Below are positions 1 through 14,729 of a DNA stretch of 23,607 nucleotides, piece by piece (the stretch's first letter is position 1; every line of letters starts with the position of its first letter). Origin of the DNA: a virus (Duplodnaviria; Heunggongvirae; Uroviricota; Caudoviricetes); IMG/VR virus record IMGVR_UViG_2778261356_000013, positions 1-23,607 of that record; one strand, 5' to 3'. Under the pieces are notes generated by a model. It did not search any database. It saw nothing but the letters and a program-made list of their open reading frames with translations, and had not been told where the DNA came from. The position numbers and the translations under genes were made by a program.

Positions 1-1053
1 TTACGGGGTAATGCCAACCGCTGCCGCCACTTTGTCGCCACTTGGCAGCGTTGCCAGAGGATTGAAACGGAGCGCCGTTTCCAGATGATCCGGTGCCAGA
101 TGTGCGTAACGCATAGTCATTTTTATATCGTGGTGTCCGAGAATTTTTTGTAAGGCCAGAATGTTTCCACCCGACATCATGAAGTGCGCCGCAAACGTAT
201 GGCGCAGAACGTGTGTGAGTTGACCGCGAGGGAGCACGATAGACGTTTTTTCCATCACGGATAAAAATTGAAAATAGCAGTCTGTGAAGAAATTGAACCC
301 ATCAAGCGCCATGATCTCTTCGTAAAGCTCTTTACTGATAGGGATGCTTCTGTTTTTCTTCCCCTTCGTTCTTACAAAGGTAATTCGGTATTTGGTCACC
401 TGTGAACGAGTAAGATTTACGGCTTCTCGCCAGCGTGCGCCTGTGCTTAAGCATATCTTAACTACCAGTGCCAGAATTGGGTCCTGACGTTTGCAATCAG
501 CCAGTAATTCAACAATCTGCTCATGGGTAAGCCATGCCATCTCTTTTTCTGCGATGGTGAATTTTCGCATGTTCTCCAGTGGGTTCGGATACGACCATTC
601 GCCCAGGCGGGATAGTTCGCTAAAAACACTACTTAGATAGCTTTGCTCCAGGTTAATGGTGACCGGGCTTGCTCCTTTCTTCCATTTCTCGCTGAAGTAG
701 ATCTCACCTGTCAGGCGTTTATCTCGATAGTGGGCAAACATTTTAGAGGTTAGATCAGTTGCAAGGGGATTGCCCAGAGCGTCAACCATCAGCAGCAATT
801 TGTCATAGACATGCTGCCCAGCAGTTAGTGATTTACCATGTAGTTTGAACCATAGCTCAACCACGTCTTTCAGTGTTCGACGATCCACTGATTCACCTAG
901 CCAGGGCTTTGCTTCGGTTTCTTCCATCGTGTGACGCTCAAAAGCCAGTGCTTCGCCTTTGGTGGCGAATTGTTTACGCACACGACGCCCACTACGTCCG
1001 GCGGGGTAACATTCGCAAAGCCATTTTCCTGTGGTGAGTTTTCGTACAGCCAT
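1..1053 (-). CDS. int: Tyrosine integrase (P2/186-like); likely true start is the internal Met (MAVRKLTTGKW...), about 350 aa
   Basis: C-terminal catalytic region LTHVLRHTFAAHFMMSGGNILALQKILGHHDIKMTMRYAHL (R..H-x-x-R ... Y) typical of tyrosine recombinases; reverse-strand ATG at 1053-1051 preceded by GGAGGG; first gene of a P2-like early region, divergent from lysogeny module. Confidence 0.85.
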   Translation of the reverse strand: MAVRKLTTGKWLCECYPAGRSGRRVRKQFATKGEALAFERHTMEETEAKPWLGESVDRRTLKDVVELWFKLHGKSLTAGQHVYDKLLLMVDALGNPLATDLTSKMFAHYRDKRLTGEIYFSEKWKKGASPVTINLEQSYLSSVFSELSRLGEWSYPNPLENMRKFTIAEKEMAWLTHEQIVELLADCKRQDPILALVVKICLSTGARWREAVNLTRSQVTKYRITFVRTKGKKNRSIPISKELYEEIMALDGFNFFTDCYFQFLSVMEKTSIVLPRGQLTHVLRHTFAAHFMMSGGNILALQKILGHHDIKMTMRYAHLAPDHLETALRFNPLATLPSGDKVAAAVGITP

Positions 1054-1241
1054 AAAAAATGCCCTCCAATAGAGAGCATTTTTACTGTATGTATAACCAG
1101 TGTCAATGTATGAAATCCTGCGACCATACATCTCACTGAAGCCATAATGAAGTAGGCTATTCTTTTTGCTATGTGATCATGTAACTTTTGCGGTTAACCT
1201 GAGGCTCATTTTTATTTTAGGCGCAGATATAAAAGCAAAAG

Positions 1242-2397: not shown

Positions 2398-2907
2398 ATG
2401 TTTGATTACCAAGTTTCCAAACATCCACATTTTGATGAAGCCTGTCGTGCATTTGCACTGCGCCACAATCTGGTGCAACTGGCAGAACGTGCAGGCATGA
2501 ATGTGCAGATTCTGCGGAACAAGCTGAACCCAGCTCAGCCTCATTTATTAACCGCACCAGAAATCTGGCTGCTTACCGATCTGACTGAAGATTCAACGCT
2601 GGTAGATGGTTTTCTGGCACAGATTCATTGTCTGCCATGTGTACCGATTAATGAGGTGGCAAAAGAGAAACTGCCACATTACGTCATGAGTGCAACCGCA
2701 GAGATCGGGCGTGTTGCTGCAGGTGCGGTGTCTGGCGATGTAAAAACCTGTGCCGGTCGTCGTGATGCTATCAGCAGCATTAACTCTGTAACACGACTGA
2801 TGGCGCTGGCGGCTGTTTCATTGCAGGCCCGTTTACAGGCTAATCCTGCGATGGCGAGTGCAGTTGATACCGTGACTGGCCTCGGTGCTTCATTTGGTTT
2901 GCTGTGA
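2398..2907 (+). CDS. CII-like early regulatory protein (169 aa from ATG at 2398; ORF-track start 2392 is TTG)
   Basis: Position after apl/cox and length match 186 CII from recall; HTH-like N-terminal region; assignment by synteny. Confidence 0.55.
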
Positions 2908-2914
2908 GGTGCTT

Positions 2915-3115
2915 ATGCTGACGAAAGAACCATCATTTGCATCGCTGCTGGTTAAACAAAGCCCGGCAATGCATTACGGTCACGGCTGGATCATGGGGGA
3001 GGATGGTAAACGCTGGCATCCGTGCCGTTCACAAGATGAATTGCTGGCAGAACTATCTACGAAAAAACGGGGGAACAAATGGCTATTGAAGGCACTGCGG
3101 CGACTGTTCCATTAA
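2915..3115 (+). CDS. Hypothetical early protein (66 aa from ATG 2915), Fil-position ORF
   Basis: ATG 2915 with GAGGTG upstream; ORF-track start 2885 is GTG inside CII 3' end; function not recognisable. Confidence 0.4.
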   Translation: MLTKEPSFASLLVKQSPAMHYGHGWIMGEDGKRWHPCRSQDELLAELSTKKRGNKWLLKALRRLFH

Positions 3116-3420
3116 GCCCCGGTGAACGCCTGAATGGACTTAATCACATTGCGGAGTTAAGGGCGAAAGTTTTTGGCCTGAATATTGAGTCAGAGCTTGA
3201 GCGGTTTATTAAAGATATGCGTGATTCACGGGATATTAATAGCGAACAAAATAAACGGGCACTGGCTGCCATATTCTTTATGGCAAAAATTCCAGCTGAA
3301 CGTCATAGCATCAGCATTAATGAGCTGACCACTGACGAAAAGCGGGAGTTGATTAAAGCAATGAATCATTTTCGTGCAGTGGTGAGCTTATTTCCCAGAC
3401 GGCTAACCATGCCGAATTAA
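3079..3420 (+). CDS. Hypothetical early-operon protein (113 aa)
   Basis: ATG 3079 with GGGGGA RBS; in early operon; no recognisable motif. Confidence 0.5.
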   Translation: MAIEGTAATVPLSPGERLNGLNHIAELRAKVFGLNIESELERFIKDMRDSRDINSEQNKRALAAIFFMAKIPAERHSISINELTTDEKRELIKAMNHFRAVVSLFPRRLTMPN

Positions 3421-3487
3421 CCAACTAATGAAATTAATGGCGTAAACCCGCCGGGCATCCCTTTATCTAAATTCAGGAGAATTGATT

Positions 3488-3721
3488 ATGCGTAATATTG
3501 AAACCCTCTCGACCAAAACCGGACCGGATGACGCAGGGCTTAATATTTTACTGACAGAGGCTCGTCTGGAAGAACGCCGGGCAAGGGCTGAAGCAATGGC
3601 AGCTCGCCTTGATAGCCTGGCGTGTCATATCACATCCCGCCAGCTAACCCACGTCGAAGCGGCAGAACTGCTTCGTGTGACTGCTGAAGCAATCCAGAAC
3701 GAAGCGCAGGAGATCCACTAA
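3488..3721 (+). CDS. Hypothetical early-operon protein (77 aa from ATG 3488)
   Basis: AGGAGA RBS 3473-3478; stop overlaps next start (TAATG at 3719-3723). Confidence 0.5.
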   Translation: MRNIETLSTKTGPDDAGLNILLTEARLEERRARAEAMAARLDSLACHITSRQLTHVEAAELLRVTAEAIQNEAQEIH

Positions 3722-3948
3722 TGGCTGATGCAATGGATCTCGTACAGCAGCGCGTTGAAGAAGAACGCCAACGCCATATCCGTGCTGCCCGTGCCAAAAC
3801 GCCGGGCGTGTCCCGCGTGCTTTGCATTGAGTGTGAAGCGCCAATTCCGCCAGCACGCCGCCGTGCCATTCCGGGTGTGCAGCTTTGCATTACCTGTCAG
3901 GAAATCGCAGAGCTGAAAGGCAAACATTACAACGGAGGTGCTGTATGA
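3721..3948 (+). CDS. TraR/DksA-family C4 zinc-finger protein (75 aa)
   Basis: C-x2-C ... C-x2-C motif (CIECEAPIPPARRRAIPGVQLCITCQ) characteristic of TraR/DksA zinc fingers; translationally coupled on both sides. Confidence 0.7.
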   Translation: MADAMDLVQQRVEEERQRHIRAARAKTPGVSRVLCIECEAPIPPARRRAIPGVQLCITCQEIAELKGKHYNGGAV

Positions 3949-4802
3949 GCACCATCCTGAAATGGGCGGGAAATAAAACTGCCATAATGTCCGAACTAAA
4001 AAAACATCTTCCTGCTGGCCCGCGACTGGTTGAACCTTTCGCGGGTTCCTGTGCTGTGATGATGGAGACGGATTATCCCAGCTATCTGGTTGCGGATATT
4101 AATCCTGATTTAATCAACCTCTATAAAAAGGTTGCCGCTGATTGTGAATCGTTTATATCTCGCGCCAGAGTTTTATTTGAGATCGCAAACAGGGAGGTGG
4201 CTTATTACAACATAAGGCAGGAGTTTAATTACTCAACTGAAATTACTGATTTCATGAAAGCGGTATATTTCCTGTATCTCAATCGTCACGGTTACCGTGG
4301 TTTATGTCGCTATAACAAGAGCGGGCATTTCAACATTCCCTACGGTAATTATAAAAATCCGTATTTCCCTGAAAAAGAAATTCGCGCATTTGCAGAAAAG
4401 GCCCAGCGAGCAACGTTTATCTGCGCCAGCTTTGATGAAACGCTGGCGATGTTGAAGGCGGGGGATGTGGTGTATTGCGATCCGCCGTATGACGGTACGT
4501 TTTCCGGCTATCACACTGACGGCTTCACTGAAGATGACCAGTATCACCTGGCATCTGTTCTTGAACATCGGTCATCAGAAGGACATCCGGTCATTGTTTC
4601 TAACAGTGACACATCCCTGATCCGTTCGCTGTATCGCAATTTTACTCACCACTACATCAAGGCAAAACGCAGCATCGGTGTGGCAGCTGGCGAGGGTAAA
4701 TCAGCAACAGAAATCATTGCTGTTTCCGGGCCGCGCTGCTGGGTGGGATTTGATTATTCGCGTGGCGTGGATAGTTCTGCCGTGTACGGAGTACGTGCAT
4801 GA
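3945..4802 (+). CDS. dam: DNA adenine methyltransferase, Dam-like (ORF-track start 3885 is an upstream extension; ATG 3945 with GGAGG RBS preferred)
   Basis: Catalytic DPPY motif ([11 protein letters not shown]) and AdoMet-binding region ([11 protein letters not shown]) typical of N6-adenine MTases; N-terminal LKWAGNK. Confidence 0.85.
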
Positions 4803-7213
4803 GTCATGCCGATATGAACAACTGCTGCGGCTTTAACGAAGCTGCCGCATCGTTCTCATGGAACAGCTCGAAAAAGGCCATTAACCCTTATCTGGACCCG
4901 GTGGAAGTTGCGCCGGTTTCTACGCTTTCAAACCTGATCACTCTGTACGCTGCCGATAACGAGCAGGAACAGCTGCGCCGTGAGGCGCTGAGTGATCAGG
5001 TCTGGGAGCGTTATTTCTTTAATGAATCCCGTGATCCTGTCCAGCGCGAAATGGAACAGGATAAGCTCATTAGTCGGGCAAAGCTGGCGCATGAGCAGCA
5101 GCGTTTTAATCCGGATATGGTCATTCTGGCGGACGTCAACGCCCAGCCTTCCCATATCAGCAAGCCGCTGATGCAACGTATTGAATACTTCAGCAGCCTG
5201 GGCAGGCCAAAGGCTTATTCCCGCTATTTACGTGAGACGATTAAGCCATGTCTGGAACGACTGGAGCATGTACGCGACAGTCAGCTATCTGCATCTTTTT
5301 GCTTTATGGCAAGCCATGAAGGGCTGGACGGCCTGCTGATCCTGCCTGAAATGAGTCAGGATCAGGTGAAACGCCTGTCCACCCTGGTAGCTGCGCATAT
5401 GAGTATGTGCCTTGATGCCGCTTGTGGCGATTTGTATGCTACCGATGACGTTAAGCCAGAAGAAATCCGCAATACATGGGAAAGGGTGGCAGCGGAAACC
5501 CTGCGTCTGGATGTCATCCCGCCTGCGTTTGAGCAACTCCGTCGGAAAAGAAACCGCCGTAAACCCGTGCCCTATGAACTCATTCCGGGTTCGCTGGCGC
5601 GTATGTTGTGCGCCGACTGGTGGTATCGGAAATTATGGAAGATGCGTTGCGAATGGCGGGAAGAGCAGTTGCGTGCTGTCTGCCTTGTCAGCAAAAAAGC
5701 ATCTCCCTATGTCAGCTATGAAGCCGTGTTGCATAAACGTGAGCAGCGCCGTAAGTCGCTGGAGTTTTTCCGTTCTCATGAACTGGTGAACGAAGACGGC
5801 GACACGCTAGACATGGAGGATGTGGTAAACGCCAGCAGCAGCAACCCTGCGCATCGCCGCAATGAGATGATGGCCTGTGTTAAAGGTCTGGAGCTTATCG
5901 CGGAAATGCGCGGTGACTGCGCCGTTTTCTACACCATCACCTGTCCGTCACGTTTCCATTCCACGCTAAATAACGGCAGGCCCAACCCGACCTGGACAAA
6001 TGCGACGGTAAGACAAAGCAGCGATTATCTGGTCGGTATGTTTGCTGCATTTCGTAAGGCGATGCACAAAGCCGGGTTGCGCTGGTATGGCGTGCGGGTG
6101 GCTGAGCCGCATCACGACGGCACAGTTCACTGGCACCTGTTGTGTTTCATGCGCAAAAAAGACCGCCGCGCCATTACAGCATTGTTGCGTAAGTTTGCTA
6201 TCCGTGAAGACCGCGAGGAGCTGGGCAATAACACGGGGCCGCGCTTTAAGTCTGAGCTGATTAACCCGCGCAAAGGAACGCCGACAAGCTACATAGCGAA
6301 ATACATCAGTAAGAACATTGACGGGCGTGGTCTGGCTGGCGAGATCAGCAAGGAAACGGGTAAATCTCTGCGTGATAACGCTGAATACGTGAATGCCTGG
6401 GCGTCTTTGCATCGTGTTCAGCAATTCCGCTTCTTTGGCATTCCGGGGCGTCAGGCTTACCGTGAACTGCGATTGCTGGCTGGTCAGGCGGTAAGGCAAA
6501 AGGGGGACAAAAAAGCAGGTGCGCCGGTACTGGATAACCCGCGCCTTGATGCCATCCTGGCTGCTGCTGATGCTGGTTGTTTTGCCACCTACATCATGAA
6601 GCAGGGCGGCGTACTGGTTCCCCGTAAATATCACCTCATCAGAACCGCTTATGAAATCAACGAAGAGCCGACCGCCTATGGCGATCACGGCATTCGTATT
6701 TATGGCATCTGGTCACCCATTGCAGAGGGCAAGATCTGCACTCATGCAGTGAAGTGGAAAATGGTTCGTAAAGCCGTTGACGTTCAGGAGGCGGCAGCCG
6801 ACCAGGGCGCTTGCGCCCCTTGGACTCGTGGCAATAACTGTCCCCTTGCTGAAAATTTGAACCAACAAGGGAAAGACAAATCAGCTGATGGGGATACCAG
6901 GACGGACATTACCTGCATGGATGACAAGGAGTTGCACGATTACCTGCACAGTATGAGCAAAAAAGAGCGCCGAGAACTGGCTGCAAGGTTACGCCTCGTG
7001 AAACCGAAACGGCGTAAAGACTACAAACAGCGAATTACAGACCATCAGCGACAGCAGCTCGTCTATGAACTGAAGTCCAGAGGATTTAATGGCAGCGAGA
7101 AAGAGGTCGATTTACTCCTTCGCGGCGGCAGTATTCCGTCAGGAGCAGGCCTGCGTATCTTCTATCGGAACCAGCGTTTGCAGGAAGATGATAAGTGGCG
7201 AAACCTGTATTAA
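4799..7213 (+). CDS. A: Rolling-circle replication initiation endonuclease, P2 gpA-like (804 aa)
   Basis: HUH-type motif ([10 protein letters not shown]) and paired tyrosines ([14 protein letters not shown]) typical of P2 A / phiX174 A superfamily; start overlaps dam stop (ATGA). Confidence 0.85.
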
Positions 7214-7282
7214 TTACGCGGGTTAACAATTCGTGCTCTTAATAATACCAGGCATATCAGGCTGATGAACGTAAAAAAACGT

Positions 7283-7325
7283 TTTACATCAGTAAGATTA
7301 TTATATACTGTAAATATAAACAGTG
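7283..7325 (+). promoter_or_regulatory. SOS-type promoter with LexA box (TACTGTAAATATAAACAGTG, 7306-7325) overlapping the -10 region; -35 TTTACA at 7283-7288
   Basis: Perfect CTGT-N8-ACAG core at 7308-7323 read from sequence; about 40 bp upstream of the next ORF. Confidence 0.6.
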
Positions 7326-7366
7326 GTTATGTATACAGTATTGCTTGTGGTGTCATAGGAGGAAAG

Positions 7367-7555
7367 ATGCAGGACTATTTTTTGGAGTCTTTGAAGCTCC
7401 AGCGCATTGATTTTTTTCTTAAGCTTGTAGCGGCTAGTGAGTGTAGTGATGAAGAGAAGGGGCTGGCTTTGCAGTGGGTTTCTGAACTGACAGATGAACT
7501 CATGGCAAAAATCAGAACCCACGAATACAACCGCTCAATGGATGTCATCAGCTGA
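7367..7555 (+). CDS. Small SOS-controlled protein (62 aa), possible Tum-like antirepressor N-terminal module
   Basis: ATG 7367 with AGGAGG RBS; directly downstream of LexA box; function inferred from position only. Confidence 0.4.
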   Translation: MQDYFLESLKLQRIDFFLKLVAASECSDEEKGLALQWVSELTDELMAKIRTHEYNRSMDVIS

Positions 7556-7565
7556 GGTGACTTTT

Positions 7566-7799
7566 ATGCGCATTGAAATAATGATCGATAAAGAGCAGAA
7601 GATTAGCCAGTCTACCCTAGACGCCCTTGAATCCGAGCTTTACCGCAATCTGCGCCCCCTATATCCAAAAACGGTAATTCGCATCCGCAAAGGTAGCTCT
7701 AACGGTGTGGAACTGACCGGACTGCAACTGGACGAAGAAAGAAAACAAGTGATGAAAATTATGCAGAAGGTGTGGGAAGACGACAGCTGGCTGCATTAA
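7566..7799 (+). CDS. DinI-like protein (77 aa)
   Basis: Sequence MRIEIMIDKEQ...KVWEDDSWLH resembles DinI family (MRIEV... WE...W C-terminus); GAGGTG RBS; downstream of LexA box. Confidence 0.7.
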   Translation: MRIEIMIDKEQKISQSTLDALESELYRNLRPLYPKTVIRIRKGSSNGVELTGLQLDEERKQVMKIMQKVWEDDSWLH

Positions 7800-7807
7800 G
7801 AAACCTT

Positions 7808-7838
7808 GCCCCCAAGAGAATTTATTCTGATGGGGGCT
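7808..7838 (+). terminator. Stem-loop after DinI-like gene (GCCCCCA...TGGGGGC), weak U-tract
   Basis: Inverted repeat seen directly 9 nt after the stop codon; lacks strong T-run so intrinsic termination is uncertain. Confidence 0.35.
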
Positions 7839-8205
7839 AGTTTGGGCAACGAGTGAAACGAGGCGTAAGGTGGGCGGCCATTTTGATAAGTGATTGTACG
7901 CTTTGTGTTGTGAGTTCAACGGGTCGATGCAACGCTATCCTTAATCAAGGGGACGTTGCTCATACCCATCGATGCAATGAAAATCCATACTCATGGGGAA
8001 GACCAGAATGTCCCTGCCTTTTTCATTTTGTTCAGCACATGCACTATGGCCATTGCCTTCCCAAGCTAGCTATCGTAATCACTCAGCGTCAGTAAACTAC
8101 TGAAAAATTGTTTTACCTTGTATATCAATAATGCCAAATCATACCCAAAAAATCGAAAATAATTAGATCGACAGGCAGAAGGCAATGTGAATAATCTTAA
8201 AAACC

Positions 8206-8236
8206 TTGACTGCCAGTGAGGTTTGGTTCTATAAAT
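8206..8236 (+). promoter_or_regulatory. Candidate sigma70 promoter for darT-like operon (TTGACT 8206-8211, -10 near TATAAA(T) 8230-8236)
   Basis: Hexamers and spacing read from sequence about 30 bp upstream of the ATG. Confidence 0.35.
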
Positions 8237-8266
8237 AGACTTACGAATTTGAAAGGATGAGTTGAA

Positions 8267-8848
8267 ATGAGCGAAAGGAAAAGAATTGAAGACCAGTATC
8301 TTCTCTATCATTTAACATGTATGGATAATCTACCTAGTATTTTAGACACAGGATTAAGATCTCGTGCATCAGTAAAAGGTGAGTTTGTTGATGTGGCCGA
8401 CGGTGAAATAATAACAGGTCGCGAAGCATTAAATTTGCAAACAATGGTTCCTTTTCATTTCTTTACTAAGAATCCATTTGATGGAAGAGTCCTGAAAGAT
8501 CATAAGGAAAAATCATTTTGTATTATTTCGGTTTGTCGGGCATTTGCCAAAGAAAATGGTTGGAAAGTTATCCCTAAACATCCATTATCCACCAGTTCTG
8601 TTATAGACCTCTTAGATTATGAACAAGGAATGGCCCAAATTGACTGGGAGCTTATGAATATAAGGGATTATAAAAATGCAGAATGCAAATCTGTATGTAT
8701 GGCTGAGTGTTTATCAAGTGTAACGGTCGAGCCGAAAAATTTCCATTGCATCTTTGTCAAAAATGATAACGAAAAAAAATATGTTGAAGGGTTGATAAAA
8801 CAACAAGGATTAAGTATATTGATAACGATCAACACTTATATGTTCTAA
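8267..8848 (+). CDS. darT: DarT-like (DUF4433) DNA ADP-ribosyltransferase toxin (193 aa)
   Basis: Motifs YHLTCMDNLPSIL, VPFHFF and C-terminal MAECL resemble DarT signature blocks (YHxTHxxNLxxIL, VPFYF, catalytic AEFLV), from recall; AT-rich; followed 4 nt later by macrodomain gene. Confidence 0.7.
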   Translation: MSERKRIEDQYLLYHLTCMDNLPSILDTGLRSRASVKGEFVDVADGEIITGREALNLQTMVPFHFFTKNPFDGRVLKDHKEKSFCIISVCRAFAKENGWKVIPKHPLSTSSVIDLLDYEQGMAQIDWELMNIRDYKNAECKSVCMAECLSSVTVEPKNFHCIFVKNDNEKKYVEGLIKQQGLSILITINTYMF

Positions 8849-8852
8849 TTCT

Positions 8853-9824
8853 ATGATTAAGTATGCAAGCGGAAATCTTCTAAACTCTACATCGCAAGCT
8901 CTTGTGAATGCTGTAAACTGCCAAGGAGTCATGGGAAAGGGTATTGCTTTGGCTTTTAAAGAAACTTTTCCCTATAATTTCGAAGTTTATAAGAGAGCAT
9001 GCGCCACTGGTACAATGAAAATTGGACAGGTTTTAATTGTAGAGGAAAAGGGAAAAATAATCGTAAACTTTCCCACTAAAGATAGTTGGAGAAAAAAATC
9101 AACATATGATTTTATCTCGCAAGGCCTTGAATCTTTAGCAAAAATTATAGACGAAAAAAAAATTACATCAATATCAATACCACCTTTAGGCTGTGGTAAT
9201 GGGGGCCTCGATTGGAATAAGGTTGAGGCTCTTATTTTAAAAACTTTTCAAAATTTAGATAATGTTGATGTGGTAATTTATCCGCCTGCAACTAACAATC
9301 AACTTTCAAAAAATAAAAATGTTATTAATGCTAAGCATCTTTTGGTTCACTACGCCTATGGAAAATTAAAAGTTAAGCAAAAATATTCCCTTTATACAGT
9401 TTTTTATATTTGCGAATGTATTGAGAAAGCAAATCTTTTTTTATTCGATTTTAAACATGGTCGGCCATACTCTTCTGAGTTAGAAAATATTATGAAGGAT
9501 ATAGCAAACCTTAAAGTTGAGTTGCAAGGAGATTTTGATGCTTTTATTGAAGATTATATTAATACTCATCAATCCAAAGAGTTACAAACCGAGTTTGGTA
9601 AACTAATCTCAACTTTAAATCCAAGTATAAGTTTTCTCAATGCTCTTAAAAATAAGATTGATTATACAGATAGCGTACATGTGATCACGAGAATTGCTAA
9701 AGAAAAAGATCATGGCTTGCATATTGACAATTTCAAAGAATATGAAAATATTGTGCAGCATTTAATTAAAAATGGATTGGTAATCGAAGATATTTTTAAC
9801 GAACTAAAAATAAAGGGAAGTTAG
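8853..9824 (+). CDS. darG: DarG-like macrodomain antitoxin (323 aa): N-terminal macrodomain plus C-terminal domain of unknown fold
   Basis: Macrodomain signature ALVNAVNCQGVMGKGIALAFKETFP ... SIPPLGCGNGGLDW; operon partner of DarT-like gene. Confidence 0.7.
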   Translation: MIKYASGNLLNSTSQALVNAVNCQGVMGKGIALAFKETFPYNFEVYKRACATGTMKIGQVLIVEEKGKIIVNFPTKDSWRKKSTYDFISQGLESLAKIIDEKKITSISIPPLGCGNGGLDWNKVEALILKTFQNLDNVDVVIYPPATNNQLSKNKNVINAKHLLVHYAYGKLKVKQKYSLYTVFYICECIEKANLFLFDFKHGRPYSSELENIMKDIANLKVELQGDFDAFIEDYINTHQSKELQTEFGKLISTLNPSISFLNALKNKIDYTDSVHVITRIAKEKDHGLHIDNFKEYENIVQHLIKNGLVIEDIFNELKIKGS

Positions 9825-10376
9825 TAGCGCTATTTTCAATTTTTTTGCTGAAATTGCGCATGCACACTCTTACGCATTATAGATGCGGCGTTAATCCCGC
9901 CAGGAGTGTTGTTTAATAAATTGAACTATTTCTGCATTGAAGGATCAACTTACGCATTCGCTGACAACGCAGGCACTCTCCTGGCTAAGCAGAAATTCAG
10001 AGTAACCAACTGGCACTTTTACAACAATTTTCTTATCAGTTGCGGCTCCATGACTTTCTGGTGGGATAACAAAGCAATTAAGGCGTGGTATTGTAAGTAT
10101 CCCGCATAATCATGCTAGTAACATTTGTCCCCCATGTAACCTAATTAAGGCAACTTCCGCTCTTCGCTCACAGTGAACCTCCATGTTTGTAAACCCGTAT
10201 ATTTCGTTTTTCAAGTGGTCATTCAGATACGGATTTTCACTTCTCTTGGCTGTGCATGTCTATGCCGCATGAATCCGCATGATCGTTTGAGGATCGTTTT
10301 TGCTGAGGCCCCCCAGAACTGGCGGGCTTTTGCTTATGTCATGCAGGTGCATGAAAACCACTGCATAAAGCGGGCA

Positions 10377-10395
10377 GGCGTGGCGGGGATACGAG
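10377..10395. other. Candidate cos (cohesive end) site of the P2/186 family
   Basis: GGCGTGGCGGGGATACGAG resembles the 19-nt cohesive ends I recall for 186 (GGCGTGGCGGGGAAAGCAT) and P2 (GGCGAGGCGGGGAAAGCAC); lies in a 680-bp non-coding stretch on the terminase/portal side of the cargo locus. Confidence 0.45.
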
Positions 10396-10503
10396 CGCGC
10401 GCTTGTGGCTTTGAATACTCAAATCATGTAATGTTAATTGTCCAAGCTCAGATGTTATTTTAGAATCGTAGTTCACTAGAACTGTGTTAATTGGGAAGTA
10501 TTC

Positions 10504-11754
10504 ATGGATAAACAACGTGCTTCACAAGTTTTTGTGCCTGGCGGTATGCCGAAATTGACTTATGTTGAGCGCTCTGAAGGAGAGGTTCATGGAAAACTGG
10601 AGAGTGCTAAAGATAATTTATGTAAGTTAGTGACTTTAACTGGGCAAACAAAGTCTGGTAAGACTGTAATTACAAGAATGGTATTCCCAGTCATGGACGA
10701 TGATGTTGTATGGATTGACGGTGGGAGTATTACAACTGAAGATGATATTTGGGAGCAGGTATTAGAAAAACTAAATGGCTACCATAGTATTGAAGTTAAT
10801 TCTGGAGAAAATAGTGCTATTGCAGTTAGTGGTAAGGTATCGGGGACCGCAAGTGCATTAGTTGTTAAAGGTACAGGTGAGGCTGGTTTAGTTCAGACGG
10901 ATGGAAAGTCAAATGGTAATAAAAAATCGCGAACGATATCCGCAAAAAGTTCTGCACTAAAAGTTCTCTCTCAAACCAAGTCTAGTCTTATAATTGATGA
11001 CTTTCATTACCTTGATCGTGACCTACAAGGTAACTTTATTAGAGCGATAAAACCATTAGTTTTTGATGGAGTACCAGTTGTACTGATAGCCATTCCACAT
11101 CGAAGGTATGATGCTGTAAAAGTTGAAAAAGAAATTACCGGACGGCTAGAAAATATTTCCATGCCTTCGTGGGAAATGGATGAACTAAAACAAATAGCAA
11201 AAGTGGGATTTCCTCTGTTAAACATGGAAGTTAGTGATTCAGTAATTGATAAAATTGCCAATGAATCATTGGGAAGCCCTCATTTAATGCAAGAGTTTTG
11301 CAAGGCTATATGCTTAGCAAATAATGTTAAAGAAACTTTGCCGAGTAAGTTAGTTATTAATTCTTTAGATGATGATATTTTTAGAAAGGTTGCAGAATCC
11401 ACTGGGAAAATAGTATTTGATAAGTTAGCTAGTGGCCCTAATCAGCGAACTGACAGAATTCCTAGAAAACTGAAAAGTGGTGAGGAAGTAGATATATATA
11501 AAGTTGTATTATATGCATTGTCACATATGAAACCAGGAATGCAAAGTATTCAGTATGAGGAGTTAAGATCAGCCATACGCGAACTGGTGCAAGATGCTCC
11601 TCCACAAGCTCATGAGGTTACTCGTGTTATAGAAAAAATGGCTAAAATAGCTGCTACGGAAGAAGCTTCAACTCCTGTAATAGATTGGGATAAGGAGGAC
11701 CGAAAGTTGCATATTACTGATCCATTTTTTGCTTTTTATCTAAAATGGCGATAA
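10504..11754 (+). CDS. Orphan P-loop NTPase, AAA+/ATPase_2-like (416 aa); candidate stand-alone defence or exclusion gene
   Basis: Walker A GQTKSGKT (aa 47-54), Walker B LIIDDFHYL (aa 162-170, resembles xIDEFQYL of archaeal-type AAA ATPases); Gly/Ser-rich insert between them; ATG 10504 with GGGAAG RBS; AT-rich; located between candidate cos and portal gene. Confidence 0.6.
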   Translation: MDKQRASQVFVPGGMPKLTYVERSEGEVHGKLESAKDNLCKLVTLTGQTKSGKTVITRMVFPVMDDDVVWIDGGSITTEDDIWEQVLEKLNGYHSIEVNSGENSAIAVSGKVSGTASALVVKGTGEAGLVQTDGKSNGNKKSRTISAKSSALKVLSQTKSSLIIDDFHYLDRDLQGNFIRAIKPLVFDGVPVVLIAIPHRRYDAVKVEKEITGRLENISMPSWEMDELKQIAKVGFPLLNMEVSDSVIDKIANESLGSPHLMQEFCKAICLANNVKETLPSKLVINSLDDDIFRKVAESTGKIVFDKLASGPNQRTDRIPRKLKSGEEVDIYKVVLYALSHMKPGMQSIQYEELRSAIRELVQDAPPQAHEVTRVIEKMAKIAATEEASTPVIDWDKEDRKLHITDPFFAFYLKWR

Positions 11755-11761
11755 AGGTTCT

Positions 11762-11780
11762 GGCTGCCAAACTGGCAGCC
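11762..11780. terminator. Hairpin between convergent ATPase and portal genes (GGCTGCC-AAACT-GGCAGCC)
   Basis: Perfect 7-bp GC-rich inverted repeat read from sequence in the 32-bp gap between convergent stop codons; no strong U-tract on either strand. Confidence 0.4.
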
Positions 11781-11786
11781 TTAAAG

Positions 11787-12821
11787 CTAATTTGAATGAA
11801 GTTTATATTCTTCGAACTGTATCACTTTTTCTTTTAACCAAACATTTAACTCTTCAAATCTTTTTTGCAATGGTATTAGTTCATTGCGTACAAATACATT
11901 ACTTGCCTTCTCCACATCCCCAAACCCCCCAACATTATTTGGCATTATCCCCATCATCTGTGGCGGCACGCGGTGTGCCGCCATCATGTCATCGCGACTA
12001 ACATTTTTGATATTCAGAAATTCATCCTTCGCTGCGACTTCTGACAACGGGATAATCTGAAGTCCGTCTTTTTTACCATTAGGCGAGTACATAAACAGAT
12101 TGCGGAAGTTACCCGGACCTTTGGCGCTTTTCATTGCGTTGCGGAGGTTGTTCACATCCTCCTGGTTCTGCGCGGCATCGGTCATGTACATGATGAAGCC
12201 GGCATGACTGCCGTTAATGTAATACTTGCGGCGGAACAGCGTGGCGGACTCGTTGAGCAAAGCGGATGGGATGGCAGAAAGATAGCCGGGCAGGCCGTAG
12301 ATCTCCTGGTTGATGTCCGGTTCCATCAGATGAAAAATGCTGCCTTTCGTGAACTGATACGGCTGGGTTGTCATACCGTATTGCACAAACCAGTAGGTAT
12401 CCAGGTCTAACCCGCGTCGGGTGTATTTTGCCAGCGCAGGCTCAAGGGCGATAACTTCACCGAATCGGTTCGTGCGTTTCTCCAGGTAGGCGTTACCAAA
12501 TACCAGATAGTCCTGTACAAAACGCGAAAAAGCCTGTTGGCTGAGCAGCGGATGAGGGATATAGGTACTGGTCAGAATGTTGCACTTTACTGCAATCGGG
12601 GAACTGTGATGCACGGCAGCCCGGAAGGTGCGCGCCAGTCCGTCAAAACTTACGGGTGGCTCGTACCAACGCTCCATCTGTACGCATTCCACATAGTCCA
12701 GCAGTTCGCGGCGGTCCAGAACAGGAACGGGATCACCGAAGCTGAATGCTTCGGCTGAAGTCTGGCTTTTATGCTGGATCTGTTTCGTCGACGCAGCGCG
12801 GTTCTTCTTACTCTTTCCCAT
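11787..12821 (-). CDS. Q: Portal protein, P2 gpQ-like (about 344 aa from ATG at 12821)
   Basis: Size and position match P2 Q (minus strand, adjacent to terminase P, next to cos side); start overlaps terminase stop (ATGA); assignment by synteny and length. Confidence 0.8.
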   Translation of the reverse strand: MGKSKKNRAASTKQIQHKSQTSAEAFSFGDPVPVLDRRELLDYVECVQMERWYEPPVSFDGLARTFRAAVHHSSPIAVKCNILTSTYIPHPLLSQQAFSRFVQDYLVFGNAYLEKRTNRFGEVIALEPALAKYTRRGLDLDTYWFVQYGMTTQPYQFTKGSIFHLMEPDINQEIYGLPGYLSAIPSALLNESATLFRRKYYINGSHAGFIMYMTDAAQNQEDVNNLRNAMKSAKGPGNFRNLFMYSPNGKKDGLQIIPLSEVAAKDEFLNIKNVSRDDMMAAHRVPPQMMGIMPNNVGGFGDVEKASNVFVRNELIPLQKRFEELNVWLKEKVIQFEEYKLHSN

Positions 12822-14587
12822 CAAAAAATCTCCACAATATTGCTGGTATTGGCGGACTCGCCCTGCAGCGGTTCGTTAAACAGTGCGTGCATTGTTGCCC
12901 AGGCCAGATCGGCATGGCTGGCTTCTTCGCTGCGGCTGGCTTCATAGGTCGGGCGGTTGCCACTGGCAGTGGTAGCGCGACGGATTGCCATAAATGACTG
13001 CGCAATGTCGGTGTGCCCGGCGTCAAACTCCAGACGGCGGTGGCTGATAATGTCGTAGGCCTTGAGTACCAGGGCGTTTTTAACATTGGGGTTGTAGACA
13101 AACTCCCGGACGGCAGGAAAGAACGCTTTCACGTTCTCATAAACCCCGTGACCAACGCCGGTTGAGTCGATACCGATATAGGTCACGTTGTACTGTTCGG
13201 TCAGTTTTTTGATGGCGTCAGCCTGGGCGCGGAAGTCCATCCCGCGCCACTGGTGACGCTCAAGAATGCGGAACTTACCACCAGGCACGGCTGGCGGTGC
13301 CACCACCACGCATCCGGCGCTGTCGCCGTTTTGCGTACCTTTTGCCGGGTCATAACCGATCCACACTTCGCGCCAGCCAAACGGGCGCAGAGCCAGTGCA
13401 TGAAAGTCGGTCCAGACTTCCCAGCTGTCCACCATGCACGCCTGCAGCTCGCTGAGCGGAAATACGGACGCGAGATCGTCCACAAACTCGCACATCAGCA
13501 GGTTCTGGTATTCGTCCGGGCTGTACTCCATGCGCAACTGGTCAAGGTCGAACAGGTTACAGCCGCCGCGCACCGCATCTTCCACGGTGACTATCTGGCG
13601 GTATTGCCCGTCTGCGCACAGCAGGCCGGGGGCCAGATTGCTGTGGGACAGGTCGATGTCCACCTTGTCGGCCTTGTTGCGCCCACGGTTGAACAGCGCA
13701 CCGGACCAGAACGGATAAGCACTGTGTGTCAGGCTGGATGGCGTGGAAAAATAGGTTTGTCGCCATTTTTTGTGAATAGCCATACCGGATGCCACTTTGC
13801 GCAGCTCCTGGAATTTCGGTATCCAGAAATATTCATCCAGATACAGGTTGCCGTGATAACTCTGGGCCGTGCGGGCATTGGTGCCGAGGAAGTAAAGCGT
13901 GGCCCCGTTAGGAAGCACCATCGGATCGCCTTTCAACTCCACCCCCACTTCTTTGGCGAAGTCGATGATGTACTGCTTAAAGACGTGGGCCTGTGCCTTG
14001 CTGGCGGAAAGGAAAATCTGGTTACGTCCGGTAAGCAGGGCGTCAATCAGGGCTTCACGGGCAAAGTAAAAGGTCGCGCCGATCTGGCGTGACTTCAGCA
14101 GGTTGCGGATGCGGTTGGTTTTTCCGGCTTCCCACCAGTGGCGCTGGTAGTTGAACATGGAGGAATGGAAGATTTCTTCCAGCTTCTCAATCTGCTCATC
14201 GGTGAAAACATTCTTTTCCGGCTGACGGCGTGGGCCTTTATTGCGGTTGGCGACGTTAGGGTTTAAGTCGGCTTCGTTGCCGCCATTGTTAAACTTGCCG
14301 ATCCGCGCGTGGCGCTCCGACTGGCGCGCCAGCAGGTCAATCTCTTTGAAATCTTTCCCTTCTTTGTGCTCCTTCATGATGAGCTGGCAGTAGCGTGCGG
14401 CGGTGGTGAGCTGCATCTGATCCAGCGGCCCATAGTCACCCCACTTGTCGCGTTTTTTCCAGCTGTGAACGGTTGCAACTTTCTCGCCCAGCATTTCAGC
14501 AATGCGGGCTACGCGGTATCCCTGAAAGTACAGCAGCATGGCCTGCCGACGGGGATCGAGATCTGCGGGTGTCAGTGTGGTGTTCAT
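12821..14587 (-). CDS. P: Terminase large (ATPase) subunit, P2 gpP-like (588 aa)
   Basis: Length and divergent arrangement versus O-N-M-L match P2 P; ATG at 14587; assignment by synteny and length. Confidence 0.85.
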   Translation of the reverse strand: MNTTLTPADLDPRRQAMLLYFQGYRVARIAEMLGEKVATVHSWKKRDKWGDYGPLDQMQLTTAARYCQLIMKEHKEGKDFKEIDLLARQSERHARIGKFNNGGNEADLNPNVANRNKGPRRQPEKNVFTDEQIEKLEEIFHSSMFNYQRHWWEAGKTNRIRNLLKSRQIGATFYFAREALIDALLTGRNQIFLSASKAQAHVFKQYIIDFAKEVGVELKGDPMVLPNGATLYFLGTNARTAQSYHGNLYLDEYFWIPKFQELRKVASGMAIHKKWRQTYFSTPSSLTHSAYPFWSGALFNRGRNKADKVDIDLSHSNLAPGLLCADGQYRQIVTVEDAVRGGCNLFDLDQLRMEYSPDEYQNLLMCEFVDDLASVFPLSELQACMVDSWEVWTDFHALALRPFGWREVWIGYDPAKGTQNGDSAGCVVVAPPAVPGGKFRILERHQWRGMDFRAQADAIKKLTEQYNVTYIGIDSTGVGHGVYENVKAFFPAVREFVYNPNVKNALVLKAYDIISHRRLEFDAGHTDIAQSFMAIRRATTASGNRPTYEASRSEEASHADLAWATMHALFNEPLQGESANTSNIVEIF

Positions 14588-14729
14588 GGCACAAACCTAC
14601 AACCTTGAATGAAGGCTTTCCCCGCCTGCGGTTTGTGTGGTTGTCGGTACAAATACCGCGCATTGTTTCACTGCCCCCATCACCGCAACCATAAGGCTCC
14701 AGTAAGTTTTTTCTAACGGAGCACGGCTC
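14588..14729. promoter_or_regulatory. Divergent late promoter region between P and O, with dyad CGGTA-N4-TACCG at 14645-14658
   Basis: Intergenic between divergently transcribed late operons as in P2; dyad seen directly; activator site assignment is inference. Confidence 0.35.

Follow-up and report, generated by a model that had tools for sequence, protein, structure and literature searches.

A P2-like prophage carries a probable DarTG2-class toxin-antitoxin module with a toxin of a separate, short DarT clade

We analyzed a 23,607-nucleotide stretch of viral DNA (hereafter the window; Caudoviricetes, positions 1 to 23,607 of the IMG/VR record IMGVR_UViG_2778261356_000013), which is a P2-like E. 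coli prophage, and within it a pair of co-oriented genes, darT and darG, coding for a toxin of the DarT family and a macrodomain antitoxin. The open reading frame (ORF) of darT (8267-8848, plus strand) begins with ATG and codes for 193 amino acids (aa), while that of darG (8853-9824, plus strand), likewise with an ATG start, codes for 323 aa; the toxin gene stands first, and the 4-nucleotide (nt) gap between the two reads TAA-TTCT-ATG, a junction kept as TAA-NNNN-ATG in orthologues. A preliminary description of this DNA had proposed a DarTG-like pair carried as prophage cargo, a reading that our analysis supports: both ORFs and the 4-nt gap are present, as are the strings it had quoted as DarT-like blocks (YHLTCMDNLPSIL, VPFHFF and MAECL, at residues 14, 61 and 145, respectively, of the first protein) and as macrodomain signatures in the second (VNAVNCQGVMGKGIA at residue 18 and PPLGCGNGGLDW at 110). 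The opposite strand of the darTG region harbors no competing long ORF, and an Rfam scan of 7000-12000 returned no match.

A putative sigma-70 promoter of the operon can be read from the sequence at 8206-8235 (plus strand), with TTGACT and the -10 hexamer TATAAA (8230-8235) separated by 18 nt, and a Shine-Dalgarno AGGA (8254-8257, plus strand) is readable 9 nt 5' of the darT ATG at 8267. Four orthologous modules, ~88% identical overall and taken from Kluyvera, Rahnella and two IMG/VR contigs, all carry the same TTGACT and have a -10 hexamer that hardly varies, and the AAAGGA of the Shine-Dalgarno region is invariant across five aligned orthologous modules. Both genes lie inside the interval 8206-9824 assigned to the system earlier, although its first position is no coding start but the first base of TTGACT. 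An automatic scan for promoters and terminators, which found 17 against 13.4 expected in shuffled sequences and hence no enrichment, missed the proposed promoter because it demands a T as the sixth base of the -10 hexamer. We propose that darTG is probably transcribed from its own promoter at 8206-8235, and that translation of darG is probably coupled to that of darT via the 4-nt gap. In RefSeq (PGAP), the macro-domain gene begins at an internal codon, Met27 (window position 8931, 297 aa; WP_052773454, WP_050491752), probably because AAGGAG stands just 5' of that ATG. However, homology to the DarGs of Mycobacterium tuberculosis (Mtb) and Thermus aquaticus (Taq) starts at the Met of 8853; orthologues conserve the first 26 residues (8853-8930 in the window, 14648-14725 in the LR-46 locus; N-terminus MIKYASGNLL), and the first macrodomain strand is built from them. 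Hence, the database DarG is N-terminally truncated.

The toxin is identical in protein sequence to RefSeq WP_016239482.1. In agreement with the earlier assignment to DarT, it matches Pfam PF14487 at 78.2 bits (cutoff 22.5; E 9.2e-22; model positions 1-199 of 201) and the PADLOC DarT model at E 2.2e-36. An AlphaFold model built on 25 homologues has a predicted local distance difference test score (pLDDT) of 92 and a predicted template-modeling score (pTM) of 0.88, and its top eight fold matches in the PDB are all DarTs, including those of Thermus (template-modeling (TM) score 0.80-0.82) and Mtb (0.77), the DarT1 of E. coli C7 (0.69) and the Thermosipho DarT-macro fusion (0.68). Over the fold alignments the window toxin is 16-18% identical to the Thermus and Mtb DarTs. 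By sequence, the Thermosipho fusion alone among the solved relatives matches the toxin from end to end (profile E 1.4e-12); for Thermus DarT and DarT1 the sequence match covers just the N-terminal ~30-60 residues.

Catalytic positions were taken from a joint alignment of 72 canonical DarTs and 89 members of the short clade to which the window toxin belongs, which we term P-type. Thermus equivalents were derived from chain alignments, the crystallized chain being numbered +1 relative to the native one and carrying E160A as "QAAFLV", and residue roles were taken from PMC11543638. R52 of the window DarT corresponds to an Arg present in 72 of 72 canonical sequences (Thermus R51), assigned to proton abstraction; H105 corresponds to a His present in 70 of 72 (Thermus H119), which coordinates the thymine base and is replaced by Asn104 in the guanine-specific DarT1; and E147 corresponds to the glutamate of the ADP-ribosyltransferase (ART) fold, present in all 72 (Thermus E160). 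All three are invariant in 88-89 of the 89 P-type members. In the crystallized Thermosipho DarTG chain, E147 aligns with an Ala within "MAACL", presumably an inactivating mutation. The macrodomain antitoxin is the type that reverses thymidine-linked ADP-ribose, and antitoxin type is reported to track the modified base (PMC11543638, PMC11825919). Given the His at the base-coordinating position and the macrodomain antitoxin, the window DarT most likely targets thymidine in single-stranded DNA (ssDNA).

The second protein scores 68.4 bits against Pfam Macro (cutoff 22), again as had been proposed, and matches the PADLOC DarG model at E 4.6e-80 over residues 1-305. Its residues 1-148 (8853-9296, plus strand) align from the first Met with the macrodomains of the DarGs of Mtb (2.6e-43; 50% identity) and T. 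aquaticus (3.2e-37), constituting an N-terminal DarG-type macrodomain with the catalytic Lys in place (K76, equivalent to T. aquaticus DarG K80); this domain is predicted to be an ADP-ribosyl-DNA glycohydrolase with Lys76 as its catalytic residue. The second domain of DarG2 binds and sequesters DarT in enteropathogenic E. coli (EPEC; PMC7003065), and ssDNA mimicry has been described for the Mtb DarG domain (as cited in PMC11481870). The C-terminal ~170 aa of the window DarG, previously left as uncharacterized, are indeed very divergent in sequence: they are 9% identical to their Mtb counterpart, a profile made from the window lineage alone does not detect the Mtb DarG C-terminal domain, and profile-profile comparison with canonical DarG C-terminal domains gives a weak match (E 6.5e-4 over 75 columns). 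Nevertheless, based on the fold, the PADLOC alignment and this weak match, we infer that residues ~158-323 (9324-9824, plus strand) form a second, DarT-binding domain that would sequester the window toxin. DarGs of this lineage are 321-324 aa long, as against a median of 366 aa.

We then examined the genomic neighborhoods of 100 loci that code for toxin relatives, 80 of them from species genomes and 20 from viral contigs, or 101 with the LR-46 locus. In most of them the macrodomain begins not directly after the toxin gene but ~650 nt 3' of it. At the Pseudomonas baetica locus (5965-8288) this gap is filled by a second DarT gene, so that a 198-aa homologue of the window toxin (46 bits with the NCBI DarT model) is followed by a 214-aa canonical DarT (261 bits; 5.6e-27 to Thermus DarT) and then by a 365-aa canonical DarG (440 bits). 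The order short paralogue, canonical DarT and DarG recurs in 67 of the 101 loci, and the same three genes are otherwise arranged in four; in 24 the short paralogue directly precedes DarG, as in the window, and six show other arrangements. The three-gene operons are tight, with abutting or overlapping genes, and comprise two toxins and one antitoxin. We found no description of tandem DarT genes in the literature, although our coverage was incomplete and this is weak evidence of absence.

A neighbor-joining tree, computed without support values, resolves the P-type and canonical DarTs as two clean clades. Its deepest P-type branches are two-gene systems from Brevibacillus, Cohnella, cyanobacteria and metagenomic viral contigs, while the Enterobacterales two-gene clade of the window is nested among three-gene proteobacterial loci, a topology which suggests that the Enterobacterales form arose by loss of the canonical DarT. 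P-type proteins are ~190 aa long, against ~210-230 aa for canonical DarTs, and possess the clade-specific invariant residues NPFDG, HP and MAEC. By these sequence features, the window toxin is a member of the short paralogue clade and not a canonical DarT2, whereas the characterized DarTs of EPEC (29.5% identical to Taq DarT), V. cholerae (catalytic E166), Thermus, Mtb and E. coli C7 appear to be canonical (DarT2-type) or, for the last, DarT1. An exhaustive profile search across 1.84 billion proteins recovered 152 cluster representatives of the clade at E<=1e-30 and 406 at E<=1e-10. A few clade members form the C-terminal domain of far larger proteins (P0356, 952 aa; P0364, 1274 aa; P0373, 644 aa; E 1e-36 to 1e-39), an architecture which suggests polymorphic-toxin-like delivery. 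What is new here is the placement of the toxin in this clade, which is separate, seemingly unstudied and mostly found together with a canonical DarT.

We consider it likely that the pair constitutes a DarTG2-class toxin-antitoxin module with an anti-phage role, carried by the P2-like prophage. In this proposal, DarT would use nicotinamide adenine dinucleotide (NAD+) to attach ADP-ribose to thymidine bases of ssDNA, thereby blocking replication, and would be held in check in two ways, with the DarG macrodomain hydrolyzing the bond between ADP-ribose and DNA by means of Lys76, and the C-terminal domain binding and occluding the toxin. Infection by another phage would free DarT to modify the replicating DNA of the invader, and the resulting abortion of the infection would protect both the lysogen population and the resident prophage. 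LeRoux and colleagues reportedly defined DarTG1 and DarTG2 as defense systems in 2022. Protection against phages by DarTG2 systems has been demonstrated in E. coli, V. cholerae and P. aeruginosa (PMC12255303, PMC11481870, PMC13309987). The locus would add to the record of P2-like phages that equip their hosts with toxins modifying DNA.

Certain observations sit uneasily with this proposal. The toxin scores 53 bits with the NCBIfam model toxin_DarT (NF048013), far below its equivalog cutoff of 150, and DarG scores 230.2 bits over residues 2-243 with the NCBI equivalog NF048014, just below the cutoff of 250. The DarG C-terminal domain is recognizable only by its fold and the weak profile-profile match; furthermore, it is near neutral (isoelectric point 7.2) with a single acidic helical stretch, such that ssDNA mimicry is not evident. 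The window DarT and 86 of the 89 P-type members have a Phe, Phe71 in the window, where canonical DarTs have a Met (70 of 72), a residue (M71 in DarT1) proposed to stabilize the oxocarbenium intermediate (PMC11543638). VchB, a DarT homologue assayed in V. cholerae, was not toxic, and toxicity is therefore not to be assumed. No intrinsic terminator was found 3' of darG in the scan. Finally, we found no studied member of the short DarT clade in the literature, the E. coli DarT2 of LeRoux et al. 2022 lying outside our comparison.

The closest known systems, namely the DarTG2 of EPEC E2348/69 (DarT WP_000312835, DarG WP_000634203), Rv0059/Rv0060 of Mtb and the DarTG of Thermus, have the same pair of co-oriented genes in toxin-antitoxin order, the DarT (DUF4433) ART fold with the Arg/His/Glu set, and a DarG comprising a macrodomain with its Lys and a C-terminal DarT-binding domain. 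For these, reversible thymidine ADP-ribosylation in ssDNA combined with toxin sequestration is the expected mechanism (PMC7003065, PMC11543638). The window toxin differs from them in belonging to the shorter separate clade, in its Phe for the conserved Met and in falling below the NCBIfam cutoff, and the window DarG in its 323-aa length and diverged C-terminal domain. The settings likewise differ: the window pair occupies a P2 prophage hotspot, the EPEC system a type I restriction-modification island and the others the chromosome. The closest wider relative of the window DarT is the product of the first gene of the three-gene loci (Pseudomonas, Massilia, Dickeya, Enterobacter and others), with 45-53% identity and the same invariants; these loci add a canonical DarT and a full-length canonical DarG, whereas the window lineage is without the former and has a diverged DarG C-terminal domain. 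The Thermosipho africanus fusion (PDB 7OMU) is the closest solved relative by sequence, its MAACL aligning with the window MAECL, but it is a single polypeptide without a DarG C-terminal domain, has Asn opposite the window His105 and is less similar in fold than Thermus DarT (TM 0.68 versus 0.82). DarTG1 (E. coli C7 DarT1 and NADAR) is an anti-phage toxin-antitoxin system with a toxin of similar length and a similarly placed catalytic Glu (E152 versus window E147). However, its antitoxin is a NADAR protein and not a macrodomain protein, its toxin modifies guanine and has an Asn (N104) in place of window His105, and its sequence likeness to the window toxin is limited to the N-terminal ~30 residues; the second gene of the window has no NADAR match in Pfam, NCBIfam or PADLOC.

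The separateness of the clade raises the question of whether the same architecture serves another chemistry, with the P-type DarT modifying a different motif, another base or RNA, and DarG neutralizing it mainly by binding. This alternative, which partly overlaps with the DarTG2-class reading, is one that we regard as possible though rather improbable. It draws on the clean separation of P-type and canonical DarTs and the low identity to the Thermus and Mtb enzymes, on the Met-to-Phe change at 71 together with the clade-specific invariants, and on the closest solved relative by sequence being the Thermosipho fusion and no characterized thymidine enzyme. Moreover, the presence of both DarT types in one operon before a single DarG in 67 of 101 loci makes most sense if the toxins are non-redundant. 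Conversely, the base-coordinating position is the His of the thymine-specific DarT2 and not the Asn of the guanine-specific DarT1, the sole partner is a macrodomain 50% identical to that of Mtb DarG, antitoxin type being reported to track the modified base, and the fold is nearer to DarT2 (TM 0.80-0.82) than to DarT1 (0.69). That the enzyme acts on thymidine in ssDNA but at a different motif is quite likely, and would be a variation on the DarTG2-class reading and not a contradiction of it. Along these lines, we tentatively advance, as a conjecture that may well prove wrong, that the toxin belongs to a third DarT subfamily, distinct in function, whose ssDNA motif or target is unlike that of canonical DarT2 and which in most genomes acts beside a canonical DarT under one DarG, with the P2 pair being a streamlined one-toxin derivative in which the DarG C-terminal domain was re-tuned solely to the P-type toxin. 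If both toxin types do recognize different DNA motifs, a single antitoxin would govern a broader attack on phage DNA. The P2-borne two-gene version would offer the simplest system in which to define the role of the short clade, and its small enzyme might interest groups working on ADP-ribosylation-based genome editing (PMC13368585).

The setting of the module bears on its role. The window displays a P2-like gene map, beginning with the integrase (1-1131, minus strand) and early genes, continuing through the replication endonuclease (4799-7213) and a DinI-like gene (7494-7799, plus strand; Pfam DinI 1.3e-22) that is preceded by a small ORF, and, beyond the cargo region, resuming with the portal (11787-12824, minus strand) and terminase (12821-14587, minus strand) genes followed by capsid, lysis and tail genes. 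The pair thus sits between the replication and portal genes, where the preliminary description had placed it. Between 8001 and 10000 the G+C fraction is 0.31-0.37, as compared with ~0.55 in the phage backbone, which fits acquired cargo. Directly 3' of darG lies an IS5-family transposase fragment (about 9906-10109; RefSeq-equivalent 9981-10088), and the slot holding darTG is bounded by a cos-like site, GGCGTGGCGGGGATACGAG (10379-10397, plus strand), which is context and not part of the system. This site is a variant of the P2 cohesive end GGCGAGGCGGGGAAAGCAC, and with its flank it matches P2 cosL and flank (GGCGAGGCGGGGAAAGCACTGCGCGCT...) at 22 of 32 positions, counted by hand; a search for P2 cos allowing up to three mismatches gave no match, and the site was recognized by eye and then compared with the P2 record. 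In P2, the same slot between the replication genes and cos carries tin and old. The P2 gpA-gpQ locus is an established defense hotspot (Rousset et al. 2022, PMC9122126), and Table S5A of that survey lists WP_016239482 with Macro WP_052773454, with WP_050488095 and with several second cargoes; DarT is absent from its main text, the DarT/Macro arrangements being tabulated there without discussion or test. Likewise, RefSeq already annotates the genes as a DarT family protein and a macro domain-containing protein, and PADLOC models recognize both. The locus is therefore a known kind of system in a known place.

In terms of distribution, 10 of 5,426 complete E. coli genomes carry the darTG DNA (99.4-99.9% identity), in each case on the chromosome, and a more sensitive DNA search of E. 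coli genomes recovered the same 10. Proteins 99-100% identical to the window pair are encoded, again in the P2 setting, on six IMG/VR prophage contigs. Among the isolated phages of INPHARED there was no DNA match and one distant protein match, on an unannotated 7.5-kb fecal contig; hence, no cultured P2-like phage in that collection carries the pair. This rarity, the toxin-antitoxin layout on a mobile element and the fact that roughly one P2-like hotspot in four holds maintenance functions, for instance partitioning systems, in lieu of defense (PMC9122126) would accord with an addiction or stabilization module that retains the prophage or the cargo cassette without a useful anti-phage effect. 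We view this as unlikely: an integrated prophage is not lost through missegregation, all DarTG2 systems tested so far defend against some phages, the slot is that of old and tin, and the neighboring slot holds a PADLOC candidate defense ATPase. In any case, addiction and defense roles are not mutually exclusive.

Across the 10 genomes and six IMG/VR contigs, darTG shows no disruptions. Relative to orthologues ~85% identical (five modules from Kluyvera, Rahnella and IMG/VR), the ratio of nonsynonymous to synonymous substitution rates (dN/dS) is 0.18-0.31 for darT and 0.13-0.17 for darG, with 0.12-0.19 for the DarG C-terminal domain; both genes and both DarG domains are under purifying selection. 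These values also bear on the notion that the macrodomain protein is a counter-defense factor, an AdfM-like eraser directed against the DarT of new hosts, with darT a passenger or decaying. Phage-encoded DarG2-like macrodomain proteins that neutralize DarTG2 do exist (PMC13309987), but the notion is very improbable here, as darT is intact, encodes an identical protein in several genomes, has the above dN/dS and keeps all catalytic residues, DarG keeps a predicted DarT-binding domain that a free-standing eraser would not need, and the pair travels together in non-phage contexts. That the genes are inactive remnants, as the IS5-family fragment just 3' of darG and an IS1 5' of darT in one strain might hint, is scarcely credible for two complete, conserved frames under purifying selection and nearly identical in 10 genomes and six contigs.

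DNA homology to the orthologous modules extends from ~8013 (~7948 in some loci) to ~9878-10173, which indicates that the mobile unit includes ~250 bp 5' of darT and sometimes the IS5 fragment. The Kluyvera module (85-91% identical proteins; 2470-7558 of its locus) shares a small island with genes for a P4-type integrase and a DUF4365 protein and is not part of a P2 prophage; its presence there and in the P2 hotspot of E. coli indicates that the cassette moves between mobile elements. The same IS5/IS1182-family fragment is found 3' of darTG in Rahnella and in one IMG/VR contig, which indicates that fragment and cassette travel together. In E. coli 2022CK-00450, an IS1A element (3478-4175 of that locus) is inserted ~130 bp 5' of darT, at the equivalent of window ~8123-8135 and just 5' of the proposed promoter, with darT and darG intact.

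Beyond the cos-like site, a second slot reaching to the portal gene holds a 416-aa P-loop ATPase (10504-11754, plus strand; Pfam AAA_22 1e-05; PADLOC candidate system PDC-S59 6.6e-32), a different second cargo from those of other gpA-gpQ hotspots with darTG. None of the 5,426 complete E. coli genomes combines darTG with this ATPase. The ATPase stands alone in other P2-like prophages, e.g. Ecol_224, where it is annotated as hypothetical, and the second slot of other darTG carriers holds a hypothetical protein with a STAS-like protein (LR-46), three hypothetical proteins, or a HIRAN protein, with 2022CK-00450 having three other genes. The LR-46 prophage is 98.6% identical to the window from the integrase to 10402, just past cos, and then wholly different until the portal gene; homology to other darTG-carrying prophages likewise ends at 10402. 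Conversely, window positions 10152-13286, spanning the ATPase slot, are 99% identical to Ecol_224, which lacks darTG. As the breakpoints between prophages with differing cargo fall directly after cos, we propose that cos splits the hotspot into two independently exchanged slots. An unannotated segment of 150-250 bp (window 10152-10402) ending in GGCGTGGCGGGGATACGAG is present in 1,275 of the 5,426 E. coli genomes. All P2-like hotspots inspected keep the DinI-like gene and its preceding small ORF irrespective of cargo, and RefSeq annotates the DinI-like gene shorter in LR-46 (234 nt) than the longest ORF of the window (306 nt).

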